15,015 bases of DNA from an archaeon (lineage in GTDB: Archaea; Asgardarchaeota; Thorarchaeia; Thorarchaeales; Thorarchaeaceae): positions 1 through 15,015 of the forward strand of contig JAJRWI010000063.1 of assembly GCA_024276825.1 (NCBI GenBank), given 5' to 3'. Numbering within the stretch: position 1 is the stretch's first letter; every line of letters begins with the position of its first letter. This document shows, one piece after another, positions 2-15,014 of this stretch. The translations under genes were made by a program, and so were the position numbers. Below the pieces are notes generated by a model. The model was not told the DNA's origin. It ran no database searches and saw only the letters and a list, made by a program, of their open reading frames with translations.

Positions 2-667
2 TTCCTCATTCAGCACAACCTTGCCTCCTATGCAGCTACTCCTGGCACTATATTCCCAGGAATGGGCAATTTTGCCGCTGTCATTCTTGGTCCAGCTGGT
101 GCGCCTCTAGCTTGGTTCCTGATAGCAACTCCACTATATGCTAGTCTACTGGACTCGCCAAGCAATGCATTATGGGTCACAAGACCATTCCATGCAATGG
201 CTATGGACCGAATGTGTCCCGAGATCTTTGCTGATGTCCATCCCAAATATCATGTCCCGCACATCTCCCTGTACTATTGGTTGATAGTGCAGATTGTCAT
301 TGTGTTCACCACACTGTTTTACAATGTATATGTTGCAATCGGTGTGCTGTTCACCTATACATTCATCAGATGGCAATTCACACTGGTTGAGGTATCTCTG
401 CCATACTATCGACCGACATTATGGGAGCGAAGCGGTGCATGGACTATATTGGGCATTCCACTGATCTCGATTGCTGGTATAGTCAGTGGTGCCATATTCT
501 TCTATGCCTTGATTAGCTTCATTCCATCAGCGGGTATAGCATATGAAACTGTGTTTACTGTAGCACTCTACACGTTCGCACAGATCATGTACACCTACTA
601 TGGTGCAAAGAACAAGGCTAAAGGAATTGATATGGCAGCGATATTCGGTCAACTTCCTCCAGAGTAG
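2..667 (+). CDS. APC-family amino acid/polyamine permease, C-terminal part (5'-truncated by window edge)
   Basis: The frame is open from position 2 (FLIQHNLASYAATPGTIFPG-M...), so the ATG at 62 is internal. It has several hydrophobic TM segments, the APC-like segment 'TRPFHAMAMDRMCPEIFADVHPKYHVP' (R..fAma.Dr..P..f..vhp....P), and the C-terminus 'KAKGIDMAAIFGQLPPE' typical of archaeal APC permeases. Confidence 0.85.
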   Translation, partial: FLIQHNLASYAATPGTIFPGMGNFAAVILGPAGAPLAWFLIATPLYASLLDSPSNALWVTRPFHAMAMDRMCPEIFADVHPKYHVPHISLYYWLIVQIVIVFTTLFYNVYVAIGVLFTYTFIRWQFTLVEVSLPYYRPTLWERSGAWTILGIPLISIAGIVSGAIFFYALISFIPSAGIAYETVFTVALYTFAQIMYTYYGAKNKAKGIDMAAIFGQLPPE

Positions 668-681
668 TTTAATTTGATATC

Positions 682-717
682 GGAGAGCATTTTGCTCTCC
701 CTTATTCTCTTTTTTAT
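682..717 (+). terminator. Stem-loop plus T-rich tract downstream of the permease, between convergent genes
   Basis: GGAGAGCA-TTT-TGCTCTCC is a perfect 8-bp stem at 682-700, followed by CTTATTCTCTTTTTTT. Confidence 0.65.
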
Positions 718-735
718 AGTGGACTTATAATAGAA

Positions 736-1665
736 CTAGTCCTCTTCATCTTCAAAATCGAAAATTGGAGGAAATCCGTTTCGAGAGGCCTTACAAACAA
801 ATGGTTCCAGTTTGTCCCAAGAGCGATAGAATCGAGATGGGAATGACCATGGTCGAATAGTCATTAATTCAGGCACATCGTTAGATGATCTATAGAATTC
901 TAGTGCTTTTTTCGCCATTTCAAGAACACGCTTTCTCTCATCATCATCCCACACTTGCTGTCTGAATGTATATGCGTCTTCGTACCATTGGTAGAGAATC
1001 TCATAGTCATCAATGAATATGTTCTCAATAAGCCTCCAGGGCCAGAAAAGAGACATTTGCTCAAGTTGAACACCAGAGCCATAATGATTAATTGCCATTC
1101 CCTCTTTGCAGAAAATATAAACAGGACCTTTCTCACGCCATTTTTTCTCTCGGGGTTTTGTACTAGGCCCGCGATGAATCCAATCATACCAGTGCGCTTG
1201 GTAAGAATCCAGCACATCACAATGGTCCACTATATATTTGACTATTGCACTGGTTCCATGATGAGCAAGTCCTTTCACCATATCACGGCCAATATGTTCT
1301 CTAACAAGTTCTCTTACTCTATCTGCATCATCTTGTGGAAAATATGACCAGATTTGAAAATACTTGTTCTCCTTTAGCTTTTGAAATATAAACAGAATTG
1401 CAGCATTACCAATAGGTTTGAAATCACTTGGCAGTTCCTCATCGAGTGGCCAAGAATTGTCTTCTTTGCAAATAACTACTTCTGAGCAGTCCCAAGAAAT
1501 AACTTCTGACCAGGGGATGTCGTATACAATTGTGTATTTCTTTGTTCTCTTGCGTCGGGGGAGAGTGAATCTTATACCCTGTTGGCCAATTTTGGTTTCC
1601 GCTGTCCTCTTACTATAAGGATCATAGCCAACATAATCAGCTGCAAAATCTCGATGTTCTGCCAT
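736..1665 (-). CDS. Hypothetical soluble protein (309 aa), possibly two tandem PH-like domains
   Basis: Long ORF with GGAG a few nt upstream of the ATG, no TM segment and an acidic tail. It has two segments of the pattern G-[IM]-x-[FI]...PW-x-x-[VI], each followed later by D-D-x-x-x-R-V-x-E helices. Confidence 0.75.
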   Translation of the reverse strand: MAEHRDFAADYVGYDPYSKRTAETKIGQQGIRFTLPRRKRTKKYTIVYDIPWSEVISWDCSEVVICKEDNSWPLDEELPSDFKPIGNAAILFIFQKLKENKYFQIWSYFPQDDADRVRELVREHIGRDMVKGLAHHGTSAIVKYIVDHCDVLDSYQAHWYDWIHRGPSTKPREKKWREKGPVYIFCKEGMAINHYGSGVQLEQMSLFWPWRLIENIFIDDYEILYQWYEDAYTFRQQVWDDDERKRVLEMAKKALEFYRSSNDVPELMTIRPWSFPSRFYRSWDKLEPFVCKASRNGFPPIFDFEDEED

Positions 1666-1825
1666 TGATATTTCTCCGTTCTTTTAGGCTGTATTATGCT
1701 GCTTTTGAAGCCTTCGATTATTAAATCTCATTAATGTCCTCATTAGAAACAACTTAAGTTTAAGAATCTATGAGTAGAAATCTTAATTATATGGCTTGAG
1801 TGCAATTATTTGTGGTTCAGTAATA

Positions 1826-2527
1826 ATGAGTCATAAATTAAAGAAAGCCAAAAAGGAACCTTTGCGAATTGACCTCGATGATTTTGAGTTTGAACCATCG
1901 GGGCTTGATCTAAAATGGAGTAAGAATATCATCACAGTACTTGATGGTTATAGAATTCATCGTTGCTATGACCTTACATTTATCGAGAAGGGAGTTAGTG
2001 AGGGAGAACTCCCCAAGCAGTTTCTTAGACAGTGGAAGATTATTCGTACAGTTCTGCATAAATTTGCTGCAATTGGTCCAGAAGTACCCAATGTTAAAAA
2101 GTGGCTATTAAGAAGGCAGCTTATTCAGTTTTTCTCTCTGGTAACTTTCACAATCGCTTTGCCATTAATTGTCCTAACTTGGGTGTTAAGAATTTACGAT
2201 ATCATGTGGTTTACACTTCCGTTTGCAGCAGTTGGTGGAGGTCTTGTATTCGTTGCATGGACTGTTGGTGCATGGTACAACAGAAAGATTGCATGGGCCA
2301 TTGAACACTATATTCAGGAAAACAAGAACCTGTTGAGAAAAGAGAAGATCCACCTAAAGAAGTGGACGCAAAACCTGATTTGGCACACAGCTAGAATTAT
2401 GAGAAAAGAAGGGGCTGATCCAGAGAAGAATCTCATCAAATTCTTCAATAATGATTACAATGGAATTATCGTGGTCAAAGAACCTAATTGGTATCGAAAG
2501 CATTACACTGTTAAATTGAAGATTTAA
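1826..2527 (+). CDS. Hypothetical membrane protein with two central TM helices and basic soluble flanks
   Basis: ORF track gives 1796..2527 (TTG start). The in-frame ATG at 1826 (MSHKLKK), about 35 nt downstream of TTAATTATA, is the preferred start. Hydrophobic segments are 'FFSLVTFTIALPLIVLTWVL' and 'WFTLPFAAVGGGLVFVAWTVGAWY'. Confidence 0.75.
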   Translation: MSHKLKKAKKEPLRIDLDDFEFEPSGLDLKWSKNIITVLDGYRIHRCYDLTFIEKGVSEGELPKQFLRQWKIIRTVLHKFAAIGPEVPNVKKWLLRRQLIQFFSLVTFTIALPLIVLTWVLRIYDIMWFTLPFAAVGGGLVFVAWTVGAWYNRKIAWAIEHYIQENKNLLRKEKIHLKKWTQNLIWHTARIMRKEGADPEKNLIKFFNNDYNGIIVVKEPNWYRKHYTVKLKI

Positions 2528-2547
2528 TGGGGCTAAAATTAGTCCCA

Positions 2548-3669
2548 TTATTTTTCCATCAATTCTTCAATAGGAGTATATTTTATATCAAATCCAAAAT
2601 GACTGGGACCCAATGCATCAAGTCCGTTTTTGCATCTGAGAATATCAGCTGCGGCAAGGCCTATAACTGCCACAGAATCTCTTTTCTTAATCTCTGTATT
2701 AGTAATGGGCATTCCCGTTTTTGCATCTATGACTTCAATAAGATCAGGGCTTGTTATCCAAGGTTGTTCATCCAACCATGTGATATGATTCTCGTTTTTA
2801 AACCAGATCTTCAGGACTTTGCCCTCATATTCATTTTCACCTTTTATGATAGTTTCACCCCACATATAACCCAACTTGTTTTCCCATGTTTTTTCAGCAA
2901 CTACTCCTTTGAAAAGGATCCATCCTTTCATTTTCTCAGCAATTGCAGCTGCAGGATCTTCATCAGTATTCTTACATTCTCGAATGATTGTTCCGACTTT
3001 CAATGCCATTGATAGAGTGTCTGGAATTATTGTTTCATGAAATTCTTTGCCAGTGATTGGAAATGCCACATTACCCAAACGGCCCCAAGCAACCTCACTA
3101 AGTGCCTTTGATATCTTCTCACCCATTTCGTAATTAATTACTTCACTTACAATTGTACTATTACCATACCAATCCACCAAAGCCATTGGAGCCATTGACT
3201 TCCCAAGCAAGCAGACTGTGTTCTGGCAAATCTCAGGCACAGCTCTACCTGCATAATCACCATCAATACAGAATATCCCATACCTTATGGCTGCATCAAT
3301 TGGTGCTGGCGTGTTCCCTCCTCCAAGTTCAAAAGGTGCCACAGCTTTGAATTTAATATCCATGAACTCTTCAAGAAGTTCGAGACCTCTCATAAGCTCT
3401 TTTCCAAAATAGCTCAGAGGAAATCTGTTTTTCTCTCGTTCAATTTCAGGTGTTGGAGGTGCGATGGTCCCAGAATAGAATGCACATGCAACCCAATCAT
3501 CGTCGCCAATATGACTTGGATCGCTTATTTTAATTTTCAAGTCGGATTCAAGAAGGTCATTAAGAATCTTAACGCCCGACTCTAAGGATCCTCCGCCTCC
3601 AGTTCCGTAGAAAGTACAACCGACAACGAAGTCCTTAACATCTTGTTTATTTTTCAATTCAAAGTCCAT
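2548..3669 (-). CDS. DUF917-family protein (putative hydrolase; paralogue 1)
   Basis: DUF917 motifs: GTGGGG near the N-terminus, PFELGGGN, DGDYAGRAVPE, FKNE, PDLI. The start was moved from 3699 to the ATG at 3669, which is preceded by the RBS-like GGAGTGA. Confidence 0.9.
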   Translation of the reverse strand: MDFELKNKQDVKDFVVGCTFYGTGGGGSLESGVKILNDLLESDLKIKISDPSHIGDDDWVACAFYSGTIAPPTPEIEREKNRFPLSYFGKELMRGLELLEEFMDIKFKAVAPFELGGGNTPAPIDAAIRYGIFCIDGDYAGRAVPEICQNTVCLLGKSMAPMALVDWYGNSTIVSEVINYEMGEKISKALSEVAWGRLGNVAFPITGKEFHETIIPDTLSMALKVGTIIRECKNTDEDPAAAIAEKMKGWILFKGVVAEKTWENKLGYMWGETIIKGENEYEGKVLKIWFKNENHITWLDEQPWITSPDLIEVIDAKTGMPITNTEIKKRDSVAVIGLAAADILRCKNGLDALGPSHFGFDIKYTPIEELMEK

Positions 3670-3754
3670 GATCAGATCACTCCAATGCAGAGTTATCATA
3701 AGTTAAACCGGTTATTAAATATGACTTTAACAGAATTTAATAAATTTACATGAT

Positions 3755-3796
3755 AAAAAGAAAAGGTTGAAGTAGCGAATATCGACTATTCGCTAC
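3755..3796 (-). terminator. Stem-loop plus T-rich tract after the metallophosphoesterase gene
   Basis: GTAGCGAATA-TCGAC-TATTCGCTAC is a perfect 10-bp stem at 3772-3796. On the minus strand it is followed by TTCAACCTTTTCTTTTT and lies 8 nt after the stop at 3805. Confidence 0.7.
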
Positions 3797-3804
3797 AGAT
3801 TAGA

Positions 3805-4746
3805 TTAAAGTTCGACCCGGCCAGCTTGGACCTTACCATCTTCAATTGTTATTACAAATCCCTTCAGGATGCCCTCTCGGTATTCAGAGCCAGGATTGAT
3901 ACACAATGTGCGTCCAATCTTGGTGAATCCAACAGACTCGTGAATATGTCCATGCATGCCTAGAAGTGGTTGGTATTTTTCAATTACAGCTCTGACAGAT
4001 TTACTTCCAACGGGACCTTGTTCTTGATATGCGCCCGTTCGTGCAATGGACATGTCCTTTTGTAAAATTGGTGCTGTATCGAGACCTGAATCATAGGGAG
4101 GATCATGAAAGTTGCAAAGCAGTTTGTCATAATCGCCAGAATCTACCCTAGCAAACTCCTCCTCAAGTTTGTCCATAAGCTCTTCATCAGGACATTCACG
4201 ATGCGTATCCCAAGGCGTAGAGTTGACCCATTCCAGACTGATTAGGGGATATCCATTCAGATCTACAACCCTTTTCAATGGATAAATAATCCTTTCATGA
4301 TTCTTGATAACATCATCAATTATATAATCGTCATCATTGCCCGGATTCACTACAACCTTAACACTTTCGTCAATTTTTTCAGTCGCCAAGTCAAGCCATT
4401 GCTGAAGTCGTTCAATCATTAGTCTATGAAATAGCTCTGTTATGGCACCAGGTGTTTCGCGTAGCTTAGCCAGTTCATCAGGTGTCATAATATACGGATA
4501 AAAGCCTTCATCCATTGTGAATTTAATAAACCGATCGAGGTCTTTCTTTTTCTTAAACACCTTCTTTTTGCCATATGGTTGGGCATACCAGCGGTCTTCC
4601 TTCTCTTGGATAATAGGCATTATCGCTTTGCCAGTAAGGTCTCCGCACATCATAGCAACATCTGCTTTGAAGACCTTTGGTGCTCTACACATCTTTTCCC
4701 AAGTCTGCTGACTTCCATGGGGATCGCAAGCTAGAAAGATTCTCAT
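3805..4746 (-). CDS. Calcineurin-like (Icc-related) metallophosphoesterase
   Basis: All five motifs are present: D-x-H (DPHG), GD (CGDL), GN-x-D (GNDD), H (FHDPP), GH-x-H (HGHIHE), plus a C-terminal 'INPGS'. GAGGT RBS lies upstream of the ATG. Confidence 0.92.
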   Translation of the reverse strand: MRIFLACDPHGSQQTWEKMCRAPKVFKADVAMMCGDLTGKAIMPIIQEKEDRWYAQPYGKKKVFKKKKDLDRFIKFTMDEGFYPYIMTPDELAKLRETPGAITELFHRLMIERLQQWLDLATEKIDESVKVVVNPGNDDDYIIDDVIKNHERIIYPLKRVVDLNGYPLISLEWVNSTPWDTHRECPDEELMDKLEEEFARVDSGDYDKLLCNFHDPPYDSGLDTAPILQKDMSIARTGAYQEQGPVGSKSVRAVIEKYQPLLGMHGHIHESVGFTKIGRTLCINPGSEYREGILKGFVITIEDGKVQAGRVEL

Positions 4747-4821
4747 ATTTGAACCTCAATTATTATTATTTCTTTAAGCTGCAGTAGCAAAACAACTTTA
4801 AGAGTTTAATGGTATGAAAAG

Positions 4822-4851
4822 TCCAACTTTACATAATATATTAAAGTTGGA
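4822..4851. promoter_or_regulatory. Perfect 10-bp inverted repeat (putative operator or back-to-back promoter elements) in the divergent intergenic region
   Basis: TCCAACTTTA-(10 nt)-TAAAGTTGGA is seen directly. It is intergenic if the downstream gene starts at TTG 4883. Confidence 0.5.
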
Positions 4852-4882
4852 AGTGAGTAGTTTATCAGCTGGTGAACTTAGA

Positions 4883-5680
4883 TTGTCGGGTAAGTATGGA
4901 CCAATACTTGATGATTTTCTTGATGAAGCATTAAGGATTGAGAAGGCGGCAGCAGAGAATGATATTCCATTAAGGATTATTGGTTGCCTTGCTTTTCGAT
5001 TAAAATGCCCAGAATATGTGGACCTTCATAAGAAAATGGGGCGTGAAGTCACGGACATTGATTTTATTAGTTATTACAAATATAACAAAAAAGTAAGGAA
5101 TCTTTTCCGAGATGAACTTGGGTATTATTGGGTTCCACCAGGCTTTGCAAGGGCCACAACCCTTAGGGACTTGTTCGTTGATAAAGAGCGGGGAAGAAAG
5201 ATAGATGTGTTTTACGATCAACTAGACTTTTGTCATTTAATCGAGTTTAAGAAGAGAAAACGATTGGACATTGAAAAGCCAACGATTCCTCTTGCTGAAT
5301 TATTCCTTGAAAAGACACAGATAGTCGAGATAAATGCTAAGGATTTGAAGGACCTTGTCATTATGTTTTTGAAATATGATGTTACTTCCGAAGATGATGA
5401 TTCTCAGATTAATGGATATTATATATCGAAGCTTCTTGCAGATGACTGGGGCTTCTATTATACGGTTACTGAAAATATCAAGAAATTCATCAACTTTCTT
5501 GATAGTGTTGAACATCTCACCGAAGAACAGAAGAAACTGATAATGAAACGGGCACTAAAGTTGCGAGTGATGATAGAAGATGAGCCAAAATCGAGGGGGT
5601 GGAAACGAAGAGCACGGATTGGGACAAAGAAGCGCTGGTATAAGATAGTTCATTCAATGGATGGAACAACTAAGCTGTAA
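4883..5680 (+). CDS. Uncharacterised protein with a pol-beta-superfamily nucleotidyltransferase-like N-terminus
   Basis: 'LRIIGCLAFRL...REVTDIDFI' matches hG[GS]xA...DxD, with a third acidic strand 'KIDVF'; C-terminal half is helical. The TTG at 4883 is in frame with the 4814 ORF and preceded by GGTGA (4871-4875), so it is the preferred start. Confidence 0.7.
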   Translation: MSGKYGPILDDFLDEALRIEKAAAENDIPLRIIGCLAFRLKCPEYVDLHKKMGREVTDIDFISYYKYNKKVRNLFRDELGYYWVPPGFARATTLRDLFVDKERGRKIDVFYDQLDFCHLIEFKKRKRLDIEKPTIPLAELFLEKTQIVEINAKDLKDLVIMFLKYDVTSEDDDSQINGYYISKLLADDWGFYYTVTENIKKFINFLDSVEHLTEEQKKLIMKRALKLRVMIEDEPKSRGWKRRARIGTKKRWYKIVHSMDGTTKL

Positions 5681-5710
5681 GGATAATCGCGGAAAGGATG
5701 TGGCGTTCAA

Positions 5711-6829
5711 ATGAAACTGTCTAAGGAAGAAGCACTGGACATGCTCATTGGCGTCGGAATATTCGGGACCGGTGGCGGTGGTGACCCAGAACACTTTGGC
5801 AAGCCAATGATAAATTGGGACTATGACAAGGGCCGAATGTACGAACTCATCGATCCCAAGGACGTTGCTGATGATGCATTCATAACATGTGGTGGCTACA
5901 TGGGTTCTGTTAAGGCCTTTACTTCAATTGGTGATCTTCTTGAAACGTGGGAAGAAAGATATGAACTGTTTGAAACTCTCAAAATAACCGAGTCCATTAC
6001 TGGTAAGAAAGTTAACCATCTGGTACCATTTGAGCTCGGTGGAGTTAATACAACAGTAATGTTGTCCCTAGCCGCAAGGGCCAAAATCACAACAATTGAC
6101 GGTGATGGTCTCGGCAGGTCTGCTCCTGAAACACAGATGATATCATTTGTTGGGTATGACATCTCATTATGTCCAATGCCAGTTGTAACAAGGGGAGGTA
6201 GTATTGTTATTGTAGAGAAAGCTTCAACTCCTGCATTGGCTGACGAGATTGGCAGATTTGCCGTGGTAAATGATGGTGGTGCTGGTGCAAATAATCATTA
6301 CTATCAGACTGGTGCCCAACTGAAGAAGAGTGTGATTCCCAATAGTATCTCGTTATCAATTCAGATTGGGTCAGCTGTGAAGGATGCAAACAAGTCTGGT
6401 AATGATCCAATTGACAGCTTTATTGATATAACAAAGGGCAAGATTCTCGCAAAAGGCACTGTATCAAGTGTTAAGGGTGAGGACAAAGCAGGCCATTGGC
6501 ATGTATTGGCAACAATTGATTCCAAAGATCACGAAGGTGTGATTCAGCTAGTCATCAAGAATGAATACATGATGCTCCTCTGTGATAGCAAACCAGTGGT
6601 CATGTTCCCTGACCTCATTTGTCTTCATTATCCTGACACTGGATATGGAGTCATGAGTGCAGATCTTAGAGAAGGAATGGATGTCGTGATAACTGCAGTT
6701 CCTGCCCATGAACGCCTTAGATATGCTGGATCAACAGAAGTGGGTAAGCAGGCCTTCTCTCCAGAGAGGTATGGATATCCTGAATTGACCTACAAGCCCA
6801 TGGAAGATATCCTAAAGAACCTTCATTAA
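5711..6829 (+). CDS. DUF917-family protein (putative hydrolase; paralogue 2)
   Basis: DUF917 motifs: GTGGGGDP, PFELGGVN, DGDGLGRSAPE, IKNE, PDLI. It starts 30 nt downstream of the NTase-like gene. Confidence 0.9.
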   Translation: MKLSKEEALDMLIGVGIFGTGGGGDPEHFGKPMINWDYDKGRMYELIDPKDVADDAFITCGGYMGSVKAFTSIGDLLETWEERYELFETLKITESITGKKVNHLVPFELGGVNTTVMLSLAARAKITTIDGDGLGRSAPETQMISFVGYDISLCPMPVVTRGGSIVIVEKASTPALADEIGRFAVVNDGGAGANNHYYQTGAQLKKSVIPNSISLSIQIGSAVKDANKSGNDPIDSFIDITKGKILAKGTVSSVKGEDKAGHWHVLATIDSKDHEGVIQLVIKNEYMMLLCDSKPVVMFPDLICLHYPDTGYGVMSADLREGMDVVITAVPAHERLRYAGSTEVGKQAFSPERYGYPELTYKPMEDILKNLH

Positions 6830-6872
6830 GACCAACATCAGAATAAACATATCCTCTATGTGGGGTTTGAAA

Positions 6873-7637
6873 ATGAAGACTATCGGTCTGGTGGGCGCAA
6901 CAGGTCTAGACTGGATGCAAAACGAGAGAAAGTGGCAATTTGTTATTGATAACACTCCTAAAGGCTTTAGGATTAAGAGCTACATTCCAAGATTTGGTAC
7001 TCATAGTATCGAGTCCAGGGTTGATGAAACTTACAATGCACCGTTTATCCTTGAAAAGATTGTAGAAGCCAACAGAGACAAGGTGGATGCAATAGTCATA
7101 GATTGCGTATGTGATCCAATCCTTGATGCAGCTTGCGAGATATCCAATGTTCCTGTAATTGGTCCATTGAATGCTTCGTTGCATGTTGCTCTTACTCTTG
7201 GTAATAGATTTGGAGTGATAACAGTACAAGGTCTTTCATTGATTAAATGTCTTGAAGAAAAAATCCGAAAATATGGACTGAAAGCTTTTCTGGCTGACAT
7301 TGGGTACATAACCATGCCAGTTCTCGAGATTGCAGATAGGCCCAAAGAGGCACAGAATGAGATAATAAGAATTGGCAGTGAGATGGTAGAAAGCACAGGT
7401 GTCGAGATTATAATTCTGGGATGCACTGGACTTTCCCATGAAGTTGACATTAAGAAGATCTCAGAAAAACTAAACTTGCCAGTATTGGATCCATTCATAG
7501 TCGCAGTGAATTATGCTGCATTTCTCGTCAATTCGAATCTCACTCAAAGCAAGATTGCATATCCTATACCCCCAAAGAAGAAGATTACGGAACCTCCAAG
7601 TCTTAAGGACATATTTAATGATGTTCTAAGAGAATAG
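6873..7637 (+). CDS. Asp/Glu/hydantoin racemase family protein (hydantoin/allantoin racemase-like)
   Basis: 'SIES..DE', first catalytic Cys in 'DAIVIDCVCDP', second in 'IILGCTGL', and 'LPVLDP'. The ATG at 6873 follows GGGGT (ORF track start is 6858). Confidence 0.9.
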   Translation: MKTIGLVGATGLDWMQNERKWQFVIDNTPKGFRIKSYIPRFGTHSIESRVDETYNAPFILEKIVEANRDKVDAIVIDCVCDPILDAACEISNVPVIGPLNASLHVALTLGNRFGVITVQGLSLIKCLEEKIRKYGLKAFLADIGYITMPVLEIADRPKEAQNEIIRIGSEMVESTGVEIIILGCTGLSHEVDIKKISEKLNLPVLDPFIVAVNYAAFLVNSNLTQSKIAYPIPPKKKITEPPSLKDIFNDVLRE

Positions 7638-7651
7638 AAACCCAAAACAAG

Positions 7652-8857
7652 TCATTTTTCCTTCATCAAGATTAACAGTAGAAAGAAGATGGCAAATGAG
7701 AGTATTGAGAGCATCAGATAGGGCAGGAGGATTTGAAAGTCACCAAGCCATCCCCCAAGAATTGGTCCGATGAAAAAGCCGATTCCGGCTAAACTCTCAA
7801 CAATTCCAGCATGCGTTCCTTTTTCGTTCTCAGTGGCAGAGATAATCGTGTAGATACCCCCAAGATAGAGGAATCCAACACCAAGACCACTGGTAATCAT
7901 TGCAATAAATAGGTAGATGTAATTCTGAGTGAAGAATATAGCAAGCATGCTAAGACCTGTAATAATAGTTCCACCCTTCATGACATTATCTATCCAAGAT
8001 TGATCAATTCCCGTGCATATGACAAAACCGATTGTCCTAGCAAGATTCCAAATTAGCAACAATTCACCAAAAGTCTGCGATGTATACATCGGCAGCGATT
8101 CAATATATGTCGGGAACAGACCTAATAGCACGGTTGATACAAACCCAAAGAGCATCAGCGCAAGATATGAGCCTATGAATCTAGGACTGGTCTTGAGACC
8201 CGCTGTATCAATCTGCGGGGGGCTGGTTTCTCTATCGTCTGTGTTGTTTAAACTTAGAGCCTCACTTGTATAATTCTTAACAAGAGTCAGTATAATTGCT
8301 AGGGAAACAATCTCAGCAATGATGACCACATAGATGCTAGTTATATTGCCAAAGTTCATTGCCATGTAAGCAATTATGAAAGGGCTGAGTATCATTCCAG
8401 CACTCCAAGAAGTAGAGAATCTGGCAAGGACTGACTTTTGATTATGAGGATTTAGTTCTGCAACCATTGCCTCGATTGTTGGATAAAACAGCCCAAAGAA
8501 AAAGCCCTCAAGTGCTCTAATTATAATAAGATGAATGGGTAGTATGAATGGTAGTGGATATAATGCCAGAACCGCAAGATAGCAGATAGTCGCAATGATT
8601 AGAGACCTTTTCCGACCAATACGATCGGATATTCGACCACCAATAAAAGGCGAGAACATATAGACAATACCAAATGACCCCATTGTCCAACCAATGATAT
8701 ACTGTGAAGCATGCAGCTCTCCGGCATACCAAGGCGCAAAGATCTCTGTGGTTCCAAGAGAGAATGTCGCAATTATAGTCAATATGTAGCCGACTGAGCG
8801 AGCTCGCTTCCTTTCCTGCTCTGACATGTCATTGATGTTTCTTATCTCCATGGACAT
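7652..8857 (-). CDS. Major facilitator superfamily transporter (about 12 TM)
   Basis: MFS motif A 'GRISDRIGRKRS', motif B 'IRALEGFF' and C-terminal 'GPILGGWL', with about 12 hydrophobic segments. Confidence 0.93.
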   Translation of the reverse strand: MSMEIRNINDMSEQERKRARSVGYILTIIATFSLGTTEIFAPWYAGELHASQYIIGWTMGSFGIVYMFSPFIGGRISDRIGRKRSLIIATICYLAVLALYPLPFILPIHLIIIRALEGFFFGLFYPTIEAMVAELNPHNQKSVLARFSTSWSAGMILSPFIIAYMAMNFGNITSIYVVIIAEIVSLAIILTLVKNYTSEALSLNNTDDRETSPPQIDTAGLKTSPRFIGSYLALMLFGFVSTVLLGLFPTYIESLPMYTSQTFGELLLIWNLARTIGFVICTGIDQSWIDNVMKGGTIITGLSMLAIFFTQNYIYLFIAMITSGLGVGFLYLGGIYTIISATENEKGTHAGIVESLAGIGFFIGPILGGWLGDFQILLPYLMLSILSFAIFFLLLILMKEK

Positions 8858-8876
8858 AAAAGGATCAATCCTGTTG

Positions 8877-9890
8877 CTATCTGAGGTTAGGAACGACCTC
8901 TTTGCTTAGAACCGTTGTTGTTTCAATCACATCAGTTCCCGGTACTGGAAACAATACGGGAGTATTGGCACCTGCATCCACGATATCTTGAATCTGCTTT
9001 ATGCAGCTATCAATATCACCAATCACACCAAGGGTTTGAATCATCTTGTCAGTGATGAGCGCGCCAACATTCTCCTTCTTTTGAAGGGCATCTTTGAATG
9101 CCAGTAGTTGATCTTGCGTGACTCCAGCATGCTCCATGAGAGGGCTTGTTAGCGGCGCGTGGGGAACATAGAGTTTCATGAATTCTCGAGCTACTTTGAA
9201 TGCTCTATCAAGGTCATCATCAATCACCATTGGTAGATAAGATACCATCTCAAAATCATCAAGACTTCGATCAGCCGCCTTAGCACCCTTTCTTATTCGC
9301 TCCCATGCAAACTTTATGTAGCTAGGAGTATTAAATATCGATAGAATCACTCCATCACCAATTTCTCCTGCAAGTTTTAGGCCCATTTTTCCCTCAAAGG
9401 CCAGAAATATGGGAGGGTCTTTTCTAACTGGATCAAATATCAATTGGATGTCCTTGGCATTATAGAATTGTCCATTGAAATTAATGCTCTCACCACTCAT
9501 TATAAGTCGAACAAGTCTGACACATTCTTTTGTTCGTGATAATGGCTTTTTAAACTCATAGCCCATTTGGGACATCCAAAACGGCACACCTGAACCAAGA
9601 CCAAAAACACATCGCTTGTTGGTCAACTCGTCCACAGTGGCAAATTCCATTGCAATCAATGCAGGATGACGCGTGTAGGGGTTGATTACACCAAGCCCAA
9701 TCCGAATCTTATCGGTCACCATCCCCGCGGCAGTAATGTAAGGAATACCACCTCTGAAGAAGTAATCTTCAGCAAACCAGACTGATCCAAAGCCTAACTT
9801 CTCGGCAGTCTTGGCTAGTTCTACTGCTTCACGAACAGGAAACACTCCCGTCATTGCTACTCCAAATTCTTTGAACCCGTTCATTTTCAT
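8877..9890 (-). CDS. LLM (luciferase-like) class flavin/F420-dependent oxidoreductase, Mer-like
   Basis: 'LAKTAEKLGFGSVWFAEDY', 'IRIGLGVINPYTRHPALIAMEFATVDEL', 'FGLGSG' and 'LAGEIGDGV'. The start could be GTG 9893, ATG 9890 or ATG 9884. Confidence 0.9.
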   Translation of the reverse strand: MKMNGFKEFGVAMTGVFPVREAVELAKTAEKLGFGSVWFAEDYFFRGGIPYITAAGMVTDKIRIGLGVINPYTRHPALIAMEFATVDELTNKRCVFGLGSGVPFWMSQMGYEFKKPLSRTKECVRLVRLIMSGESINFNGQFYNAKDIQLIFDPVRKDPPIFLAFEGKMGLKLAGEIGDGVILSIFNTPSYIKFAWERIRKGAKAADRSLDDFEMVSYLPMVIDDDLDRAFKVAREFMKLYVPHAPLTSPLMEHAGVTQDQLLAFKDALQKKENVGALITDKMIQTLGVIGDIDSCIKQIQDIVDAGANTPVLFPVPGTDVIETTTVLSKEVVPNLR

Positions 9891-9897
9891 CACTTCG

Positions 9898-9931
9898 AAA
9901 AAAGAAAGAGGGGGGAGGAAACCCCTCTTTC
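9898..9931 (-). terminator. Stem-loop plus T-run between the AOR and LLM genes (intra-operon terminator/attenuator or stability hairpin)
   Basis: GAAAGAGGGG-(8 nt)-CCCCTCTTTC is a perfect 10-bp stem at 9904-9931 that overlaps the AOR stop codon. On the minus strand it is followed by TTTTTT. Confidence 0.6.
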
Positions 9932-11852
9932 ATGGCGGCAGTTTATCCAATTGCTCTAGGAAGTCTGCTACATCCTTGAGTCCCAGTTTCTCATAGGTCG
10001 CACGATATGGCCAGCTTGTCTTCAGATCCCATTCATGTAAAGCGTAATATCTGTCAAGCATATGATCCAATTCATCTCTTGAATTCATTGCACCCTTCAA
10101 TGGCCCTGAAGCAGCACCCTCATTCATTAATCTCCATGGAAGATCATCATGATCTCGGGTAGCACCGCGAGTCACATTGAATGCTTTTTCGAGCGTGACC
10201 ACCCTTCTACCAGTGAACATGAGCTCTTCCTCTGTCATCTCAATTCCAGTTGCTGCTGCATATAATCGTGCCATGTTATTTGGATTCACTCCATAAGCTG
10301 CTGTTGAAGTAAATACACAGAACCCAAGTGCTTCGGAGATCTCATAACAGTCCTCGTGCCAGCGCACAATTTCTGCTCTATATTCAGTATGATGCGGTGA
10401 AGCCCATTTTTTATCGCCAGTGAGCTTCTCGATGAGTTCTACAGCTTCTGGACTGGCTCCAAATTCTGCAAAGGTCTCAGTCATGAGGTGATCATTGCCT
10501 CGTGGATTTACAGCGAATGCCAATGCATAAGCCTTGGCCGATCTCGTTTCCACATTTGATTGTTCGAGTCCCTTTGAGTTCATTATGGCCCACTTGTAAG
10601 ACTCTTTACCAACCTTCTTGGTTGCGACTTTGAGCCCTTCAGCAAGAAGTTCGCCTAGATTGCCCTTCCTTGTCGCCATGGCCTCAATCATTTTGAACAA
10701 CTCCTCCTTTTTGCCCCAATCCAGCTCAAGGCCATCAGTATCATCCTTAGTGAGAACGCCTCGGACATAACTCTCAATGGCCCATTGCGAAATTGTGCCA
10801 GCTGATATAGTATCAAGACCAAGTCGGTTGCATATCTCATTAGCGACAATAACTGCTTCAGTATCAATAACACCGGGACCATGTCCAAGGGCACCGAAGG
10901 TTTCATATTCTGGTCCCCCGCTATACTTGCCCTTGAATGGTCCCTCATCAATCCTGCAAAATCTATGGCACCCAATTGTGCATCCAAAGCAGGCAACCCG
11001 TCGTTTCAGGTATCCCTTTTCAACCAAAGCTTGTCCGGTGATAGGATGAACATTGTCTGAATGCCCGATTTGCCAGTTTCTACCTGGAAATGCATGCAAT
11101 TCATTAACAGCAGGAATGGAGCCAGAGGTCCCATAATCGTGCAATGAAATGGCCCCGCTATCGACCTTGAGAAGTTCTCTCATCTCCTTTGCGATCTCAG
11201 CGAACTTCTTGGGATCTTTGATCTTGACTGGACGAGTTCCCTTGACGGCTACGGCCTTTAGTTTCTTCCTGCCCATTACTGCTGCTCCGCCACCTCTGGC
11301 TGCAGCATGATAGAGCGAAATATGAATTGAGGCTGGCTTGACGAGCTTCTCTCCAGCGGGGCCAATATAAAGTCCCCTGCATTCTTCGCCGTGCCATTTC
11401 TTGAGTAGTCTGTCTGTTTCATGGATATCCTTGCCCCAGAGATCTTTTGCATCTCTAATTTCAACATGATCATCTTCAATCAGGATATATGATGGTTTCT
11501 CAGCCTGCCCATGAACCACAAGATGGTCATAGCCTGCAAACTTTAATTCGGCTCCCCAATGTCCACCACTATTGGATTTAAGATAGAATCCTGTAACAGC
11601 GCCTATTGTGGTTACAGAGGTTCTTCCAGAACAGGGGGCAGTAGTTCCAGTGACTGCGCCAGGAGCAAAAATGATCACATTTCTTGGATCATCCCATGTG
11701 ATTTCAGGATCTTTGCAATAGTTCCATAAAAGTTTTGCATTAATACCTCTGGAGCCAACATAGAGCTTTCTCCATTCTTCAGGAAGGTCCTCAATCCAGA
11801 CCCTTCCTTCAGTCAAGTCGACATGAAGTATTTTACCTTGATGACCATACAT
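9930..11852 (-). CDS. aor: Aldehyde:ferredoxin oxidoreductase family (tungstopterin, [4Fe-4S]) catalytic subunit
   Basis: 'GKILHVDLT', 'SNSGGHWGAELKFAGYD', 'IGPAGE', 'AARGGGAAVMGRKKLKAV', 'CFGCTIGC', 'GPEYET', 'LGLDTISAG', 'GFCVF' and 'YYALHEWD'. Confidence 0.95.
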   Translation of the reverse strand: MYGHQGKILHVDLTEGRVWIEDLPEEWRKLYVGSRGINAKLLWNYCKDPEITWDDPRNVIIFAPGAVTGTTAPCSGRTSVTTIGAVTGFYLKSNSGGHWGAELKFAGYDHLVVHGQAEKPSYILIEDDHVEIRDAKDLWGKDIHETDRLLKKWHGEECRGLYIGPAGEKLVKPASIHISLYHAAARGGGAAVMGRKKLKAVAVKGTRPVKIKDPKKFAEIAKEMRELLKVDSGAISLHDYGTSGSIPAVNELHAFPGRNWQIGHSDNVHPITGQALVEKGYLKRRVACFGCTIGCHRFCRIDEGPFKGKYSGGPEYETFGALGHGPGVIDTEAVIVANEICNRLGLDTISAGTISQWAIESYVRGVLTKDDTDGLELDWGKKEELFKMIEAMATRKGNLGELLAEGLKVATKKVGKESYKWAIMNSKGLEQSNVETRSAKAYALAFAVNPRGNDHLMTETFAEFGASPEAVELIEKLTGDKKWASPHHTEYRAEIVRWHEDCYEISEALGFCVFTSTAAYGVNPNNMARLYAAATGIEMTEEELMFTGRRVVTLEKAFNVTRGATRDHDDLPWRLMNEGAASGPLKGAMNSRDELDHMLDRYYALHEWDLKTSWPYRATYEKLGLKDVADFLEQLDKLPP

Positions 11853-12347
11853 TTACTCTTTAACCCCCTTGTGATAATTGCGATATTCAGCCATTCGTTT
11901 AGACCTCAGCTGCTTCTTCAATCTGAGACTCTCATCATTAGCGGGCACCCATTGAAGCGCGCCCGCAACACAATGTTGGACGCAATATGGGTCATTTCCA
12001 CACAAATTACATATCATGGCCACATTTGTTTCTGGATGTAGACGAATTCCGTGATATATACAGGCCTCTACACACGATCCGCAACCAGTGCATAGATCTT
12101 TATCCACATGAATTATGCCTGTCTTTTCATCTCTTGTGAGTGCATTCTCGTGACAGGCGTCAGTGCAAGGATGCGGGTCGCACTGCTCACACAATAACGG
12201 AAGACCAATTGCGAACTCTTCATTCTTAAAGATTTTAATTCGACTTCTGAAAGGGTCGAACATTTCTTCTTTAATTAAAGAACACGCAAGAGTACATTGT
12301 TTGCAACCAGTGCATTTGTCCATATCAACAAGCAGCAGGTTTTCCAT
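11853..12347 (-). CDS. 4x[4Fe-4S] polyferredoxin electron-transfer subunit (DmsB/AOR small-subunit type)
   Basis: Four Cys groups: CTGCKQCTLAC, CEQC....CTDAC, CTGCGSCVEAC, CNLC.....CVQHC. Its TAA stop directly abuts the AOR ATG (TAAATG). Confidence 0.93.
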   Translation of the reverse strand: MENLLLVDMDKCTGCKQCTLACSLIKEEMFDPFRSRIKIFKNEEFAIGLPLLCEQCDPHPCTDACHENALTRDEKTGIIHVDKDLCTGCGSCVEACIYHGIRLHPETNVAMICNLCGNDPYCVQHCVAGALQWVPANDESLRLKKQLRSKRMAEYRNYHKGVKE

Positions 12348-12606: not shown

Positions 12607-13260
12607 TCATGAATTTATAATATCAACAATGAGTTTCTTTCGTACATTTTTCTCAGAAACCAAATACTCATAAATCTGGTTTTCAGGGATATTCTGAATG
12701 AGATGAGCCATGCTTGTTTTATAGGCATTCATTAACTTGCGAACCTTCAATTGAGGATAAATAAACAAGAATAGGCTAAAGATCAGATCTAAAATTACCA
12801 ACGCAAGTCCCAAAAGCATTCGCATGAAAGTACATGCTCTGATTATTCTAGCAATAATATTGCCAATGCTTAATATTGCACTAATTCCAATAATTAACAG
12901 ACTAACTTTAGTCAATGCATTTGTGATATTCCAATAAAACGTAGTAAAGAATATGTAATAGCTTTTCTTTGATAGAATATCAATTAATTCCATCATCTTG
13001 ATTTTATCTTTGGCTTCTTTATCAGTCGAATGATGTTTAGTTGTTCAACAAGCTTGAATAGGAGTAGCTTGTTTTGTTCCTCATTGAAGGAGTTTGGTTG
13101 CAATGCACCAAATAACTAAAAGAACAAGATCTGAAATTATATTGCGTTCCAAGTCATTGAATAAATAATAAACAATTGGAAGTATTTCCATTTCTAAAAA
13201 TACAACTAACGTAGCTACTTTATGGCCAAGTCCAAGTTTAAACCGCATAAATATGCAAGC
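12607..13260 (-). pseudogene. Possibly decayed AT-rich membrane-protein gene; the intact remnant is ORF 12607..12996 (129 aa, 2-3 hydrophobic segments)
   Basis: The frame of ORF 12607..12996 continues upstream to about 13272, through TGA stops at 13047-13045 and 13083-13081, and encodes further hydrophobic text (ACIFMRFKLGLGHKVATLVVFLEMEILPIVYYLF...). The region is very AT-rich. Confidence 0.3.
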
Positions 13261-13520: not shown

Positions 13521-15014
13521 CTACTTTCGTCTTACAAGGATGAAGACAACAGCGATGAGCACAAGGTTCAATGCTATTGATCCATATAGGGCCATCTGGA
13601 ATGTTGCTGGAATTTCACCAGCAGCCGGAGTTGTCGTTGTGATTGGTTCAGTTGTTGTAGTTGTTTCGGTTGTGGTTGTTGTAGTTGCTTCTTCGTTGAT
13701 AGTTACAATTACAGTGTCAGTTGTGGTGCGTCCAAAGAAATCGGTAACGGTGATAGTGTAATTGTATGTTCCAGCTGTAGTAGTATCAACACTGATTGAA
13801 ACATCTTCACCCGAGCCGAATGAATCTGATGACTGCAATATGCTGCCATCAAGGTACACGATCCAGCCACCCGGATAGAGGTCTTCAAGTGTCCATGTTA
13901 TATCAATGGCATCATTAACATTGCTAACGATATCATCGGGGCTTGATACTGTTGGTGCGTCAAAATCCACAACGGGATATGAAGTGCTTGAATGCAGGAG
14001 GAAGTAGCCCGCACCAGCAACACCATAGTAGAGACCCATGTGTACATCTGTGGTCTTATCGGACTGAGTCCACGATGAACCAGAGGATTCCTTGTATGCC
14101 AAATTGCTTAGAGCCTTTAGCACGCCCTGAAAGACTTGCCAGTAGCTGTAATCATGGGTCAATCTGTAGCCTTGAAGCATGAACATTCCTGTTCCAGCAA
14201 GACCATGACCCATTGCAGTTGCAATTCTGTCATTATCGCTGGCATCTGCCCAAAGCAGGCCTCCATTTACCTCGGTAGCATTGTTCTTGAGAAATTCAAG
14301 AATCTGAACCACATAGTTCTTGTAGGTTGGATTGCCTGTTGCATAATATAGTCGTGTAAAGAACCCGCCAATGCCCGCAGGTGAGCGACTCCAACCACCG
14401 AACTTGTAGGATTTTAAGGCTGTTGCATTGTTGTCAGGATAGTAGTATCCATTGTCCTCCTCATGAGTCGCATCTATCCACTCTGCAATGCCATTCGCAT
14501 ATTGAAGGAATGTAGCATTGTTGTACAGATCATACATCTCAAGGAAGAAGATACCAATTCCGGCATCGCCATGCCATCGACCAACGAACCTCTCTGTGTT
14601 GCCATTGTAACGGGTCCATGAATATCCACCTTCACTGTCATCAGCATAGTAGATCAGTCCCTCAATGGTCTTGTTCGCGGCCTCAGCGTATGTCTGATTA
14701 GCGGTGGCGAGATACAGGTTAATGAAATACCCGCCTATACCTGGTGTTCCAAAGGTCCACCGTGTGCTGAGTTGAGTGCTGTTGTCAGCCCCTTCTTTTT
14801 CAACCCACATATAACCATGACTCTTGTTTGCCATTGAGAAGAGCCAGTTTGCAGCACCTTCTGCATAGGCAAGGTAGTTGCTATCGCCAGTGGTTCTATA
14901 CAGGTCGAGGAAGAAGGTTCCAATGCCTGCTGCTCCAGCATACATGCCAGTATAGTTGTTTGATGTTGATGCAATTGTGTTGTCAGCCTCAAATGCCTGT
15001 GGCCACTTGTAGCC
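13521..15014 (-). CDS. Membrane-anchored extracellular LanC-like (alpha/alpha toroid) protein with Ig-like domain, Thr-rich linker and C-terminal TM anchor (5'-truncated)
   Basis: The frame is open to the window end (GYKWPQAFEADNTIASTSNNYTG-M). It has six ~60-aa repeats with GxxG-type loops (GAAG, GTPG, GDAG, SPAG, GLAG, GVAG), a beta-rich domain 'DITWTLED...GTYNYTITVTD', a poly-Thr linker, and the TM 'MALYGSIALNLVLIAVVFILV' followed by RRK. Confidence 0.8.
   Translation of the reverse strand, partial: GYKWPQAFEADNTIASTSNNYTGMYAGAAGIGTFFLDLYRTTGDSNYLAYAEGAANWLFSMANKSHGYMWVEKEGADNSTQLSTRWTFGTPGIGGYFINLYLATANQTYAEAANKTIEGLIYYADDSEGGYSWTRYNGNTERFVGRWHGDAGIGIFFLEMYDLYNNATFLQYANGIAEWIDATHEEDNGYYYPDNNATALKSYKFGGWSRSPAGIGGFFTRLYYATGNPTYKNYVVQILEFLKNNATEVNGGLLWADASDNDRIATAMGHGLAGTGMFMLQGYRLTHDYSYWQVFQGVLKALSNLAYKESSGSSWTQSDKTTDVHMGLYYGVAGAGYFLLHSSTSYPVVDFDAPTVSSPDDIVSNVNDAIDITWTLEDLYPGGWIVYLDGSILQSSDSFGSGEDVSISVDTTTAGTYNYTITVTDFFGRTTTDTVIVTINEEATTTTTTETTTTTEPITTTTPAAGEIPATFQMALYGSIALNLVLIAVVFILVRRK

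Follow-up and report, generated by a model that had tools for sequence, protein, structure and literature searches.

A gene island of Thorarchaeia that joins a portable permease-phosphoesterase-nucleotidyltransferase cassette to DUF917 proteins, a hydantoin-type racemase and an aldehyde:ferredoxin oxidoreductase

Thiohydantoin and S-methyl thiohydantoin desulfurases form part of bacterial ergothioneine breakdown. The D,L-ATC to L-cysteine pathway of Pseudomonas, which consists of ATC racemase, L-ATC hydrolase and carbamoylcysteine amidohydrolase, couples a ring racemase with the hydrolytic opening of a cyclic isothiourea. The locus described here resembles both in part. It lies on the complete 15,015-bp contig C57 (the window) of a Thorarchaeia metagenome-assembled genome of 2.94 Mb and 98% completeness, where 12 open reading frames (ORFs) of the ORF list occupy positions 2-12347 with intergenic gaps of 0-130 nt; the twelve tightly packed genes and each family named in an earlier reading of the letters alone (the sequence-only reading) were all found. 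The window represents the larger part of an accessory island of Thorarchaeia of ~17 genes and ~19 kb, which occurs in roughly two of every three sampled Thorarchaeia genomes. We put at roughly one half the probability that this island imports and breaks down an N- and perhaps S-containing ring compound, by means of separable modules working on one imported compound. The block is a mosaic rather than one proven pathway.

The uptake module would consist of a divergent APC-type permease, often accompanied by the membrane protein g03, together with a metallophosphoesterase (MPE) and a nucleotidyltransferase (NTase, g06). By analogy with the sole named DUF917 enzymes, the two DUF917 proteins, A and B, would hydrolyse a chiral five-membered N- or N,S-heterocycle at C2 (an amidine, thioureide or isothiourea position); the racemase may feed both enantiomers into this ring hydrolysis, and an ATC-hydrolase-like protein encoded on the adjoining contig C64 may be a further ring-handling member. 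The redox end would comprise the aldehyde:ferredoxin oxidoreductase (AOR) and its Fe-S subunit, a luciferase-like oxidoreductase (LLM), a major facilitator superfamily (MFS) transporter, a GlcD/GlcF-like FAD/Fe-S dehydrogenase and a ThiS-like protein, the redox enzymes oxidising the resulting aldehyde, alcohol or hydroxy-acid skeleton with ferredoxin and F420 as acceptors. We infer the substrate class, the order of the steps, the catabolic direction and the targets of NTase and MPE; for the substrate class the analogy is drawn from family names, the racemase subfamily, the ATC-hydrolase neighbour and a preprint in which DUF917 and hydantoin racemase genes were enriched together and DUF917 was read as hydantoinase-like (10.1101/2023.09.25.559410). 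The route proposed in the sequence-only reading, in which a hydantoin-like ring is imported, racemised and hydrolysed before redox steps follow, would fit this enzyme set, and the phosphorylated or nucleotidylated substrate and the C=N intermediate handed to the LLM, proposed in the same place, are pure conjecture.

The island in Thorarchaeia and its recurrence in other lineages

Synteny was examined in 20 regions of ≤20 kb from eight other genera of Thorarchaeia, and distribution was counted over 87 genomes of the class. All 12 genes were fully colinear in 16 of the 20 regions, with protein identities of 45-82%, and such an arrangement is non-random. As to the other regions, one was colinear up to the end of its contig and one was without the left three genes and contained a truncated DUF917A. 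DUF917A is present in 60/87 genomes and DUF917B lies 2-3 kb from it in most of those having both paralogs. The island AOR has an ortholog in 59/87 genomes (76-83% identity across the genera) and shows nearly the same genus-by-genus pattern as DUF917A, the mismatching genomes being those of 62-90% completeness. In five genomes (86-98% completeness, one of them from the same genus and assembled in a single contig) DUF917A, the island AOR, the orphan g02, the MPE and the GlcD-like ortholog were all missing. Within Thorarchaeia the island is gained or lost as a unit. The sequence-only reading had made its proposal depend on co-occurrence elsewhere, and the genes do co-occur in many other genomes.

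Eight island families recur, shuffled, in a second Asgard lineage and seven in one Bathyarchaeia contig. A Baldrarchaeia contig and the genomes of group f6/g22 (Baldr-like) contain, reordered, the APC permease, g03, MPE, AOR, g06, ThiS, LLM, Fe-S protein and DUF917A, identical to the island proteins at 60-64% (AOR), 42-44% (DUF917A) and 32-33% (LLM), with additional FGGY and DHDPS-type aldolase genes. The Bathyarchaeia contig L101 carries AOR (64%), the ferredoxin-type protein, CCG, FAD_binding_4, DUF917 (50%), g06, APC permease, g03 and MPE, beside PfkB, KDPG/KHG-aldolase and RraA-like genes; in the Bathyarchaeia contigs L107 and L123 the cassette is joined to racemase and DUF917, and L123 adds a HyuA-like gene. 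Functional linkage is best supported by the way the same ortholog groups come together again in a different order, as seen in just three or four lineages. A general link between DUF917A and AOR across Asgard archaea was rejected, since the distant Asgard paralogs (≤37% identity) have other neighbours and the association is repeated only in the f6/g22 genomes.

Several points weigh against a common ring-degrading system. All fully colinear copies belong to one taxonomic family (f1), so that common descent by itself accounts for some of the synteny, and joint loss is expected of physically linked genes whatever their function. In two genomes of one genus, G045 and G050, the segment g06-DUF917B-racemase-MFS is separate from the rest, in G045 at a distance still <16 kb. 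The Baldr-like LLM is so distant that its orthology is uncertain, and the cassette, joining partners as different as FGGY kinases, aminotransferases, adenine deaminase and Fe-type alcohol dehydrogenase (Fe-ADH), is a poor guide to this pathway. Among the Pfam matches of the window and C64 there is neither a hydantoinase nor a carbamoylase, so the lack of a hydantoinase remarked on in the sequence-only reading extends to the adjoining contig. No urocanase-type or lyase gene occurs in the island, and both DUF917 proteins score far below the desulfurase equivalog cut-offs, which makes them distant paralogs.

Such points could be taken to mean that unrelated operons (the permease cassette, DUF917/racemase, AOR-LLM-MFS and GlcD/F) have stayed adjacent by descent and share no pathway, all the more as the cassette stands on its own and changes partners freely, the genome has several AOR plus Fe-S units (8 further AOR-family matches) and a split of the block is tolerated in G045 and G050. 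We consider this unlikely. Gene order holds down to 45-50% identity over nine genera, and the genes are present or absent together, the flanking GlcD-like gene and the orphan g02 among them. The AOR ortholog group (60-64% identity, against ≤36% for the paralogs within the genome), the DUF917A type and the cassette re-associate, shuffled, in Baldr-like and Bathyarchaeia contigs; moreover, the co-oriented runs MPE-DUF917A and NTase-DUF917B-racemase diverge from one conserved spacer. Concerning the single catabolic system of the sequence-only reading, what has stood is its cohesion, seen in co-occurrence, gain and loss as a unit and shuffled recurrence; one indivisible 12-gene pathway it is not.

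Since the window is an entire contig, the block is truncated at its left end and continues on contig C64. The first gene of the window (g01, 2-667, + strand) encodes the C-terminal 221 aa of a very divergent APC-superfamily permease with a weak TIGR00909 match, and the N-terminal 297 aa are found at the start of C64 (L158:3-893, minus strand). Residues 1-286 of a full-length ortholog (L033:4284-5816) match C64 and residues 302-510 match C57. This ortholog matched PF00324 AA_permease at 4.8e-13, AA_permease was also matched by the C64 half, and for the full-length permease there was no sequence match in the PDB. The two contigs abut within the permease gene with ~15 codons missing, and this assembly break splits the island. 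Beyond the permease half, C64 contains Mrr_cat-like, 96-aa ThiS-family, CCG/4Fe-4S, FAD_binding_4 (GlcD-like) and ATC_hydrolase-like genes, which is the gene set found upstream of the permease in relatives; with this rest of the block the island comes to ~17 genes in the source genome. A class I/II aminotransferase of C64, L158:5728-6896 (+), consists of two overlapping ORFs (5728-6231 and 6222-6896), probably owing to a frameshift or sequencing error.

Putative ring-handling and redox enzymes

DUF917A (S-Me-THD family; 2548-3699, - strand) is located downstream of the phosphoesterase gene and co-oriented with it, and the second paralog, DUF917B (5711-6829, + strand), is in the same position relative to g06. 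Their scores, against a cut-off of 27 bits, place both in the superfamily: 134.9 bits (3.3e-39) with PF06032 and 176.2 bits (6e-52) with PF20906 for DUF917A, 118.2 bits (4.4e-34) and 128.9 bits (1.9e-37) for DUF917B. The two are ~27% identical to each other, and both keep the family-invariant GTGGGG, FELGGxNT, IDGD..R and KNE residues; the sole PDB relative of DUF917A is 2O3I. With the desulfurase equivalogs NF058529 and NF058532, the cut-offs of which are 440 and 450 bits, DUF917A gave 46.2 and 34.6 bits and DUF917B 53.8 and 60.9 bits.

The link to modified histidine made in the sequence-only reading is not upheld by these scores, nor by the distribution of urocanase, which is present in 82/87 class genomes with or without the island. 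A modified-histidine route was rejected on the latter ground and because HAL and urocanase lie on another contig. Nor does the locus qualify as an ergothioneine catabolic cluster, since no ergothionase-type or thiourocanate hydratase-type gene occurs in the window or C64. In the source genome a HAL-type lyase and the urocanase, both single-copy, lie within 5 kb of each other in a hut-like cluster (C24:77504-82468), and the only Hydantoinase_A-family gene is on contig C33. The urocanase ORF of C24 is unusually long, 744 aa compared to mostly 670-700 aa in relatives.

The racemase (6858-7637, + strand; PF01177, 124.6 bits, 6.1e-36) has its best PDB matches in allantoin and hydantoin racemases, 3QVJ (4.4e-22), 5LFD and 2EQ5. 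The motifs DCxCDP (C83, C85) and GCT (C189) are conserved in 43 homologs, and judged from its sequence the protein is of the hydantoin/allantoin type with both catalytic cysteines. From the key residues kept, MPE, NTase, racemase and both DUF917 proteins are predicted to be catalytically competent. The ATC_hydrolase-family scores are modest, namely 51.8 bits on C64 and 27.9 bits in the locus L093, the latter just below the cut-off of 28.1.

The AOR (9930-11852, - strand) matches AFOR_N (241 bits, 1.2e-71), AFOR_C (368.5 bits, 5.9e-110) and the structure 1AOR (5.2e-107); it is ≤36% identical to the 8 other AOR-family matches of the source genome and 60-64% identical to the copies in Baldr-like and Bathyarchaeia cassette loci. 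Its gene is abutted, with zero gap, by that of the poly-[4Fe-4S] electron-transfer subunit (11853-12347, - strand; Fer4_11 and related domains), the best PDB matches of which are Fe-S subunits of AOR complexes: 9MQX_E (1.4e-33), WOR5 6X6U_B and AorA 8C0Z_C. The MFS transporter (7652-8857, - strand; PF07690, 3.6e-38), conserved in its position as the last gene of the Fe-S-AOR-LLM-MFS unit, is on the strand of the LLM gene and 19 nt away from it, and belongs to the apparent AOR operon.

The LLM (g10; 8877-9893, - strand; PF00296, 213.7 bits, 5.4e-63) is a Mer-like protein. All of its closest PDB chains (Mer, Fgd, Adf), like its top NCBIfam matches, belong to F420 enzymes, and three CofE-family (F420 ligase-family) genes make F420 plausible in the source genome; the LLM is probably F420-dependent. 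Its assignment as a bona fide Mer was rejected, the scores being 193.5 bits against 348.7 for TIGR03555 and 205.3 against 276 for NF002619. No gene of the whole genome reaches the curated Mer cut-off TIGR03555, and the LLM is the best Mer-like match. This best Mer-like match of the genome is an accessory gene missing in many relatives.

The ThiS-like protein (L158:2151-2441, + strand, on C64; L033:2755-3045, - strand) ends with FMIAAVGG. Its gene adjoins the CCG/FAD_binding_4 pair in most Thorarchaeia islands examined, and a ThiS-family gene stands directly beside g06 in Baldr-like and Bathyarchaeia loci. AOR cofactor requires a MoaD-type carrier, and the ThiS-like protein may act as a sulfur carrier or as a MoaD for the AOR. 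The conserved GG-terminated protein, the ThiS-family gene beside g06 and a class-V aminotransferase (a family that includes cysteine desulfurases) found with the cassette in the Baldrarchaeia contig L055 and the metagenome contig L057 could point to a biosynthetic or sulfur-transfer island, in which the loaded carrier would build or modify an S-containing metabolite or a cofactor, such as the AOR pterin, and AOR and LLM would run reductively; by their family names, the named DUF917 enzymes and ATC hydrolase also act on C-S bonds. That explanation is very unlikely in our view: the island encodes two importers and lacks a ligase, a radical-SAM enzyme and an E1-type activating enzyme, and according to a scan for GG tails the ThiS-like ORF is missing from most bacterial cassette loci. 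The relatives of DUF917, racemase and ATC hydrolase are known from degradative routes, and the island is dispensable in genomes that still have many AOR-family candidates.

The permease-phosphoesterase-nucleotidyltransferase cassette and the remaining genes

Profiles of g06 gave nothing significant against the PDB or Pfam, and NTP_transf_5 matched just two g06 orthologs (E 0.004). The family comprises 2,052 representative clusters at 50% identity and is without a Pfam model. In 129 diverse homologs D81xD83, H141, K167, D180, W212, R266 and W275 are invariant; G57 is retained in ≥90% of them, as is D131. A first AlphaFold2 model built from 12 close orthologs was poor (pLDDT 58) and was replaced by one from the 129-sequence alignment (pLDDT 90.7), in which a Pol-beta nucleotidyltransferase core is followed by a helical C-domain. 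The best structural matches of this model were ANT(2'')-Ia (Z 11.8, 153 residues aligned), MenT1 (11.6), a fungal NTase-like protein (11.0), JHP933 (10.2) and LnuA (10.2). With the hG[GS] loop, the [DE]x[DE] pair, the third carboxylate and the NTase fold, g06 has the marks of the Pol-beta superfamily, and is predicted from the model to be a Pol-beta nucleotidyltransferase shaped like small-molecule O-nucleotidyltransferases (ANT(2''), LnuA). The name NTase given to it in the sequence-only reading is thereby confirmed through motifs and fold.

The annotated ATG start of g06 (4814-5680, + strand) is probably wrong: since the orthologs begin with MSGKYG, the true start would be TTG 4883, which gives a protein of 265 aa and a divergent spacer of 136 nt. 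This putative shared promoter region (4747-4882) shows conserved AT-rich boxes, of which the elements TTTAAA..TAATGGT and ATATTAA, candidate promoter or operator sites, are found again in the spacers of orthologs, and an inverted repeat with arms at 4793-4808 and 4834-4849 (CAACTTTAAGAGTTTA / TAATATATTAAAGTTG) and a perfect 9-nt core, CCAACTTTA..TAAAGTTGG. On its other side the MPE gene (g05; 3805-4746, - strand) is read in the opposite direction. The dinuclear MPE gave weak Metallophos matches, with a Pfam score at the threshold (PF00149, 21.8 vs 21.5). Its metal ligands D8, H10, D36, N137, H214, H267 and H269 do not vary among 48 sequences, motif III is GNDD, and the motifs are those of calcineurin-like metallophosphoesterases (DxH, GD, GN(H/x)(D/E), H and GHxH). 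A complex prediction for MPE and NTase, run without controls, scored 0.00 and counts neither way on binding.

The scan of 185,579 species genomes with a 20-sequence g06 alignment yielded at least 596 g06 loci, in Thor-, Heimdall-, Odin- and Bathyarchaeia, Nitrososphaerales, Chloroflexota, Actinomycetota, Desulfobacterales and others. Of 54 loci examined, from which orthologs of the island were excluded, 48 had the MPE within 10 kb and 38 an APC-type permease. Every other neighbour was much rarer, namely g03-like genes (14), FGGY kinases (6), AOR (5), Fe-S proteins (4) and GlcD/F-like (4), DUF917 (3), racemase (2) and LLM (2) genes; the g03-like gene accompanies the cassette in about 14-15 of 54-57 loci. 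Clustering of the neighbours adds aminotransferases, a bona fide adenine deaminase, Fe-ADH, 2-hydroxyacid dehydrogenase and GntR regulators. In bacteria the permease, MPE and NTase genes are usually adjacent and co-oriented. The permease-MPE-NTase cassette is a free-standing, portable unit plugged into varied catabolic clusters of archaea and bacteria; the sequence-only reading, in which the phosphoesterase and NTase were part of the pathway, is not upheld as stated in this respect, as the MPE accompanies g06 at 48 of 54 unrelated loci where the partners differ.

Many Thorarchaeia genomes have a second, paralogous cassette beside the island, composed of a 525-aa permease, g03-like protein, MPE, divergent NTase and ATC_hydrolase-like protein. 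In L056 it also includes MttB-family, corrinoid-protein and Zn-type alcohol dehydrogenase genes, and in the genome G040 (L044/L095, one contig) it is inserted between the Mrr-like gene of the island and the CCG/FAD genes. It is missing from the source genome.

The NTase/MPE pair is compatible both with a metabolic tag-and-cleave role and with a regulatory writer/eraser role. Icc/CpdA-type cyclic-nucleotide phosphodiesterases are metallophosphoesterases. A regulatory pair, either writer and eraser of a protein nucleotidylation or synthase and hydrolase of a nucleotide signal, would control the permease or the operons and leave the rest catabolic. It would account for a pair, predicted from its residues to be active in both members, that accompanies the permease whatever enzymes adjoin and stands head-to-head at a conserved spacer called regulatory; protein- and RNA-modifying NTases (MenT, TglT) are among the structural neighbours, with cyclic-nucleotide and alarmone synthases lower in the list. 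One family member of 396 aa is fused to an N-terminal MarR/IclR-type helix-turn-helix domain (L159:3548-4738, adjoining a radical-SAM gene), but this fusion is known from a single metagenome contig, and a look for fused forms gave no g06 relative exceeding 505 aa, a weak piece of evidence. Small-molecule O-nucleotidyltransferases, namely ANT(2'')-Ia and LnuA, head the structural matches, and in bacteria the three genes are adjacent and co-oriented like metabolic genes, often with a separate GntR regulator. We regard regulation by the pair as possible, though less likely than not. With respect to toxin-antitoxin systems of the MenT/AbiEii type, the neighbours of g06 in 48/54 loci are phosphoesterase, permease and metabolic enzymes; no antitoxin family is among the Pfam matches near g06, no search aimed at antitoxins having been made.

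Returning to the reading of an imported ring compound, one could speculate that the cassette performs an uptake-coupled nucleotidylation, in which the imported amino compound or the permease would be tagged with a nucleoside monophosphate and untagged. This would feed an anaerobic opening of N,S-heterocycles in Thorarchaeia by the two DUF917 hydrolases, ending in a dedicated tungsten AOR, with the ThiS-like protein handling the released sulfur. In so specific a form the proposal is unlikely.

Pfam and NCBIfam assigned two S-Me-THD/DUF917 proteins, a threshold-level MPE, an Asp/Glu/hydantoin racemase, MFS, LLM, AOR and a poly-4Fe-4S protein, and left three ORFs of the window, g02, g03 and g06, without a family. 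The Trp-rich cytosolic orphan g02 (309 aa; 736-1665, - strand), conserved in its position, had no significant match with PDB, Pfam or NCBIfam; its family contains 106 clusters, and all the source-named ones are from Thorarchaeota or related Asgard archaea. The 243-aa membrane protein g03 (1796-2527, + strand) is without a Pfam match and shows hydrophobic stretches in its translation that form a central hydrophobic hairpin. Genes g01 to g08 are single-copy in the source genome. Judging by strand and spacing, g01, g02 and g03 are probably separate transcription units, followed by MPE-DUF917A, g06-DUF917B-racemase and Fe-S-AOR-LLM-MFS. An ORF at 2527-3012 (+) was treated as spurious because it overlaps DUF917A on the opposite strand and has no Pfam match.

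To the right of 12347 the genes (12607-12996; LanC-like, 13521-14945) are not conserved with the block, the right flank in relatives being DUF2085 and DegT genes, both of which are located on contig C40 in the source genome. The LanC-like protein (474 aa, - strand) has ~20 partial paralogous matches elsewhere in the genome. No Rfam families or tRNA genes were found in the window.

Significance and comparison with known systems

Asgard archaea and Bathyarchaeia are major sediment heterotrophs with poorly known organic substrates, and the island offers a concrete enzyme set for a compound class so far unlinked to them. The literature search, short of the primary papers behind the S-Me-THD name, found no description of the island, and the permease-MPE-NTase cassette, widespread as it is, is apparently undescribed too. 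As ~2,050 clusters without a Pfam family have members across Chloroflexota, Actinomycetota, Desulfobacterales and many archaea, the cassette is a large annotation blind spot. Once its chemistry is assigned, thousands of genes would be annotated, and a new coupling between transport and nucleotidyl transfer might come to light; the little-studied DUF917 enzymes would gain a second functional context, and one of the many orphan archaeal AORs a physiological substrate.

The comparison with the thiohydantoin desulfurases (NF058529, NF058532; Pfam S-Me-THD_N/C, formerly DUF917) showed that both domains and all family-invariant residues are shared and that a hydantoin-type racemase and permeases are nearby. 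The island differs in having two distant paralogs, tied to the NTase/phosphoesterase pair and the AOR, and the genes for ergothionase and thiourocanate hydratase are missing. With the hyu clusters and the allantoin racemase HpxA (3QVJ, 5LFD) it has in common the racemase subfamily and both catalytic cysteines, whereas hydantoinase, dihydropyrimidinase, allantoinase and carbamoylase are absent from it. The ATC pathway likewise has a ring racemase, and a gene of the ATC_hydrolase family is found at the flank of the island on C64 and, in other Thorarchaeia genomes, behind the paralogous NTase; however, the ATC_hydrolase matches are modest and the function predicted only, and there is no carbamoyl-amidohydrolase.

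The NTase shares with ANT(2'')-Ia, LnuA and the MenT/AbiEii-like enzymes the Pol-beta core, G[S/C], DxD and the third Asp, at Z 10-12 over 140-180 residues. It differs from them by its low identity (11-17%), its own C-terminal helical domain, its MPE and permease partners and the fact that no resistance or antitoxin context was seen, with no search aimed at antitoxins. Finally, AOR and the abutting Fe-S subunit match both chains of the two-subunit tungsten AORs (P. furiosus WOR5 6X6U, Aromatoleum AorAB 8C0Z, 9MQX), but the island is without an AorC-type FAD subunit, and its AOR is co-oriented with the LLM and the MFS transporter amid putative heterocycle-handling genes.

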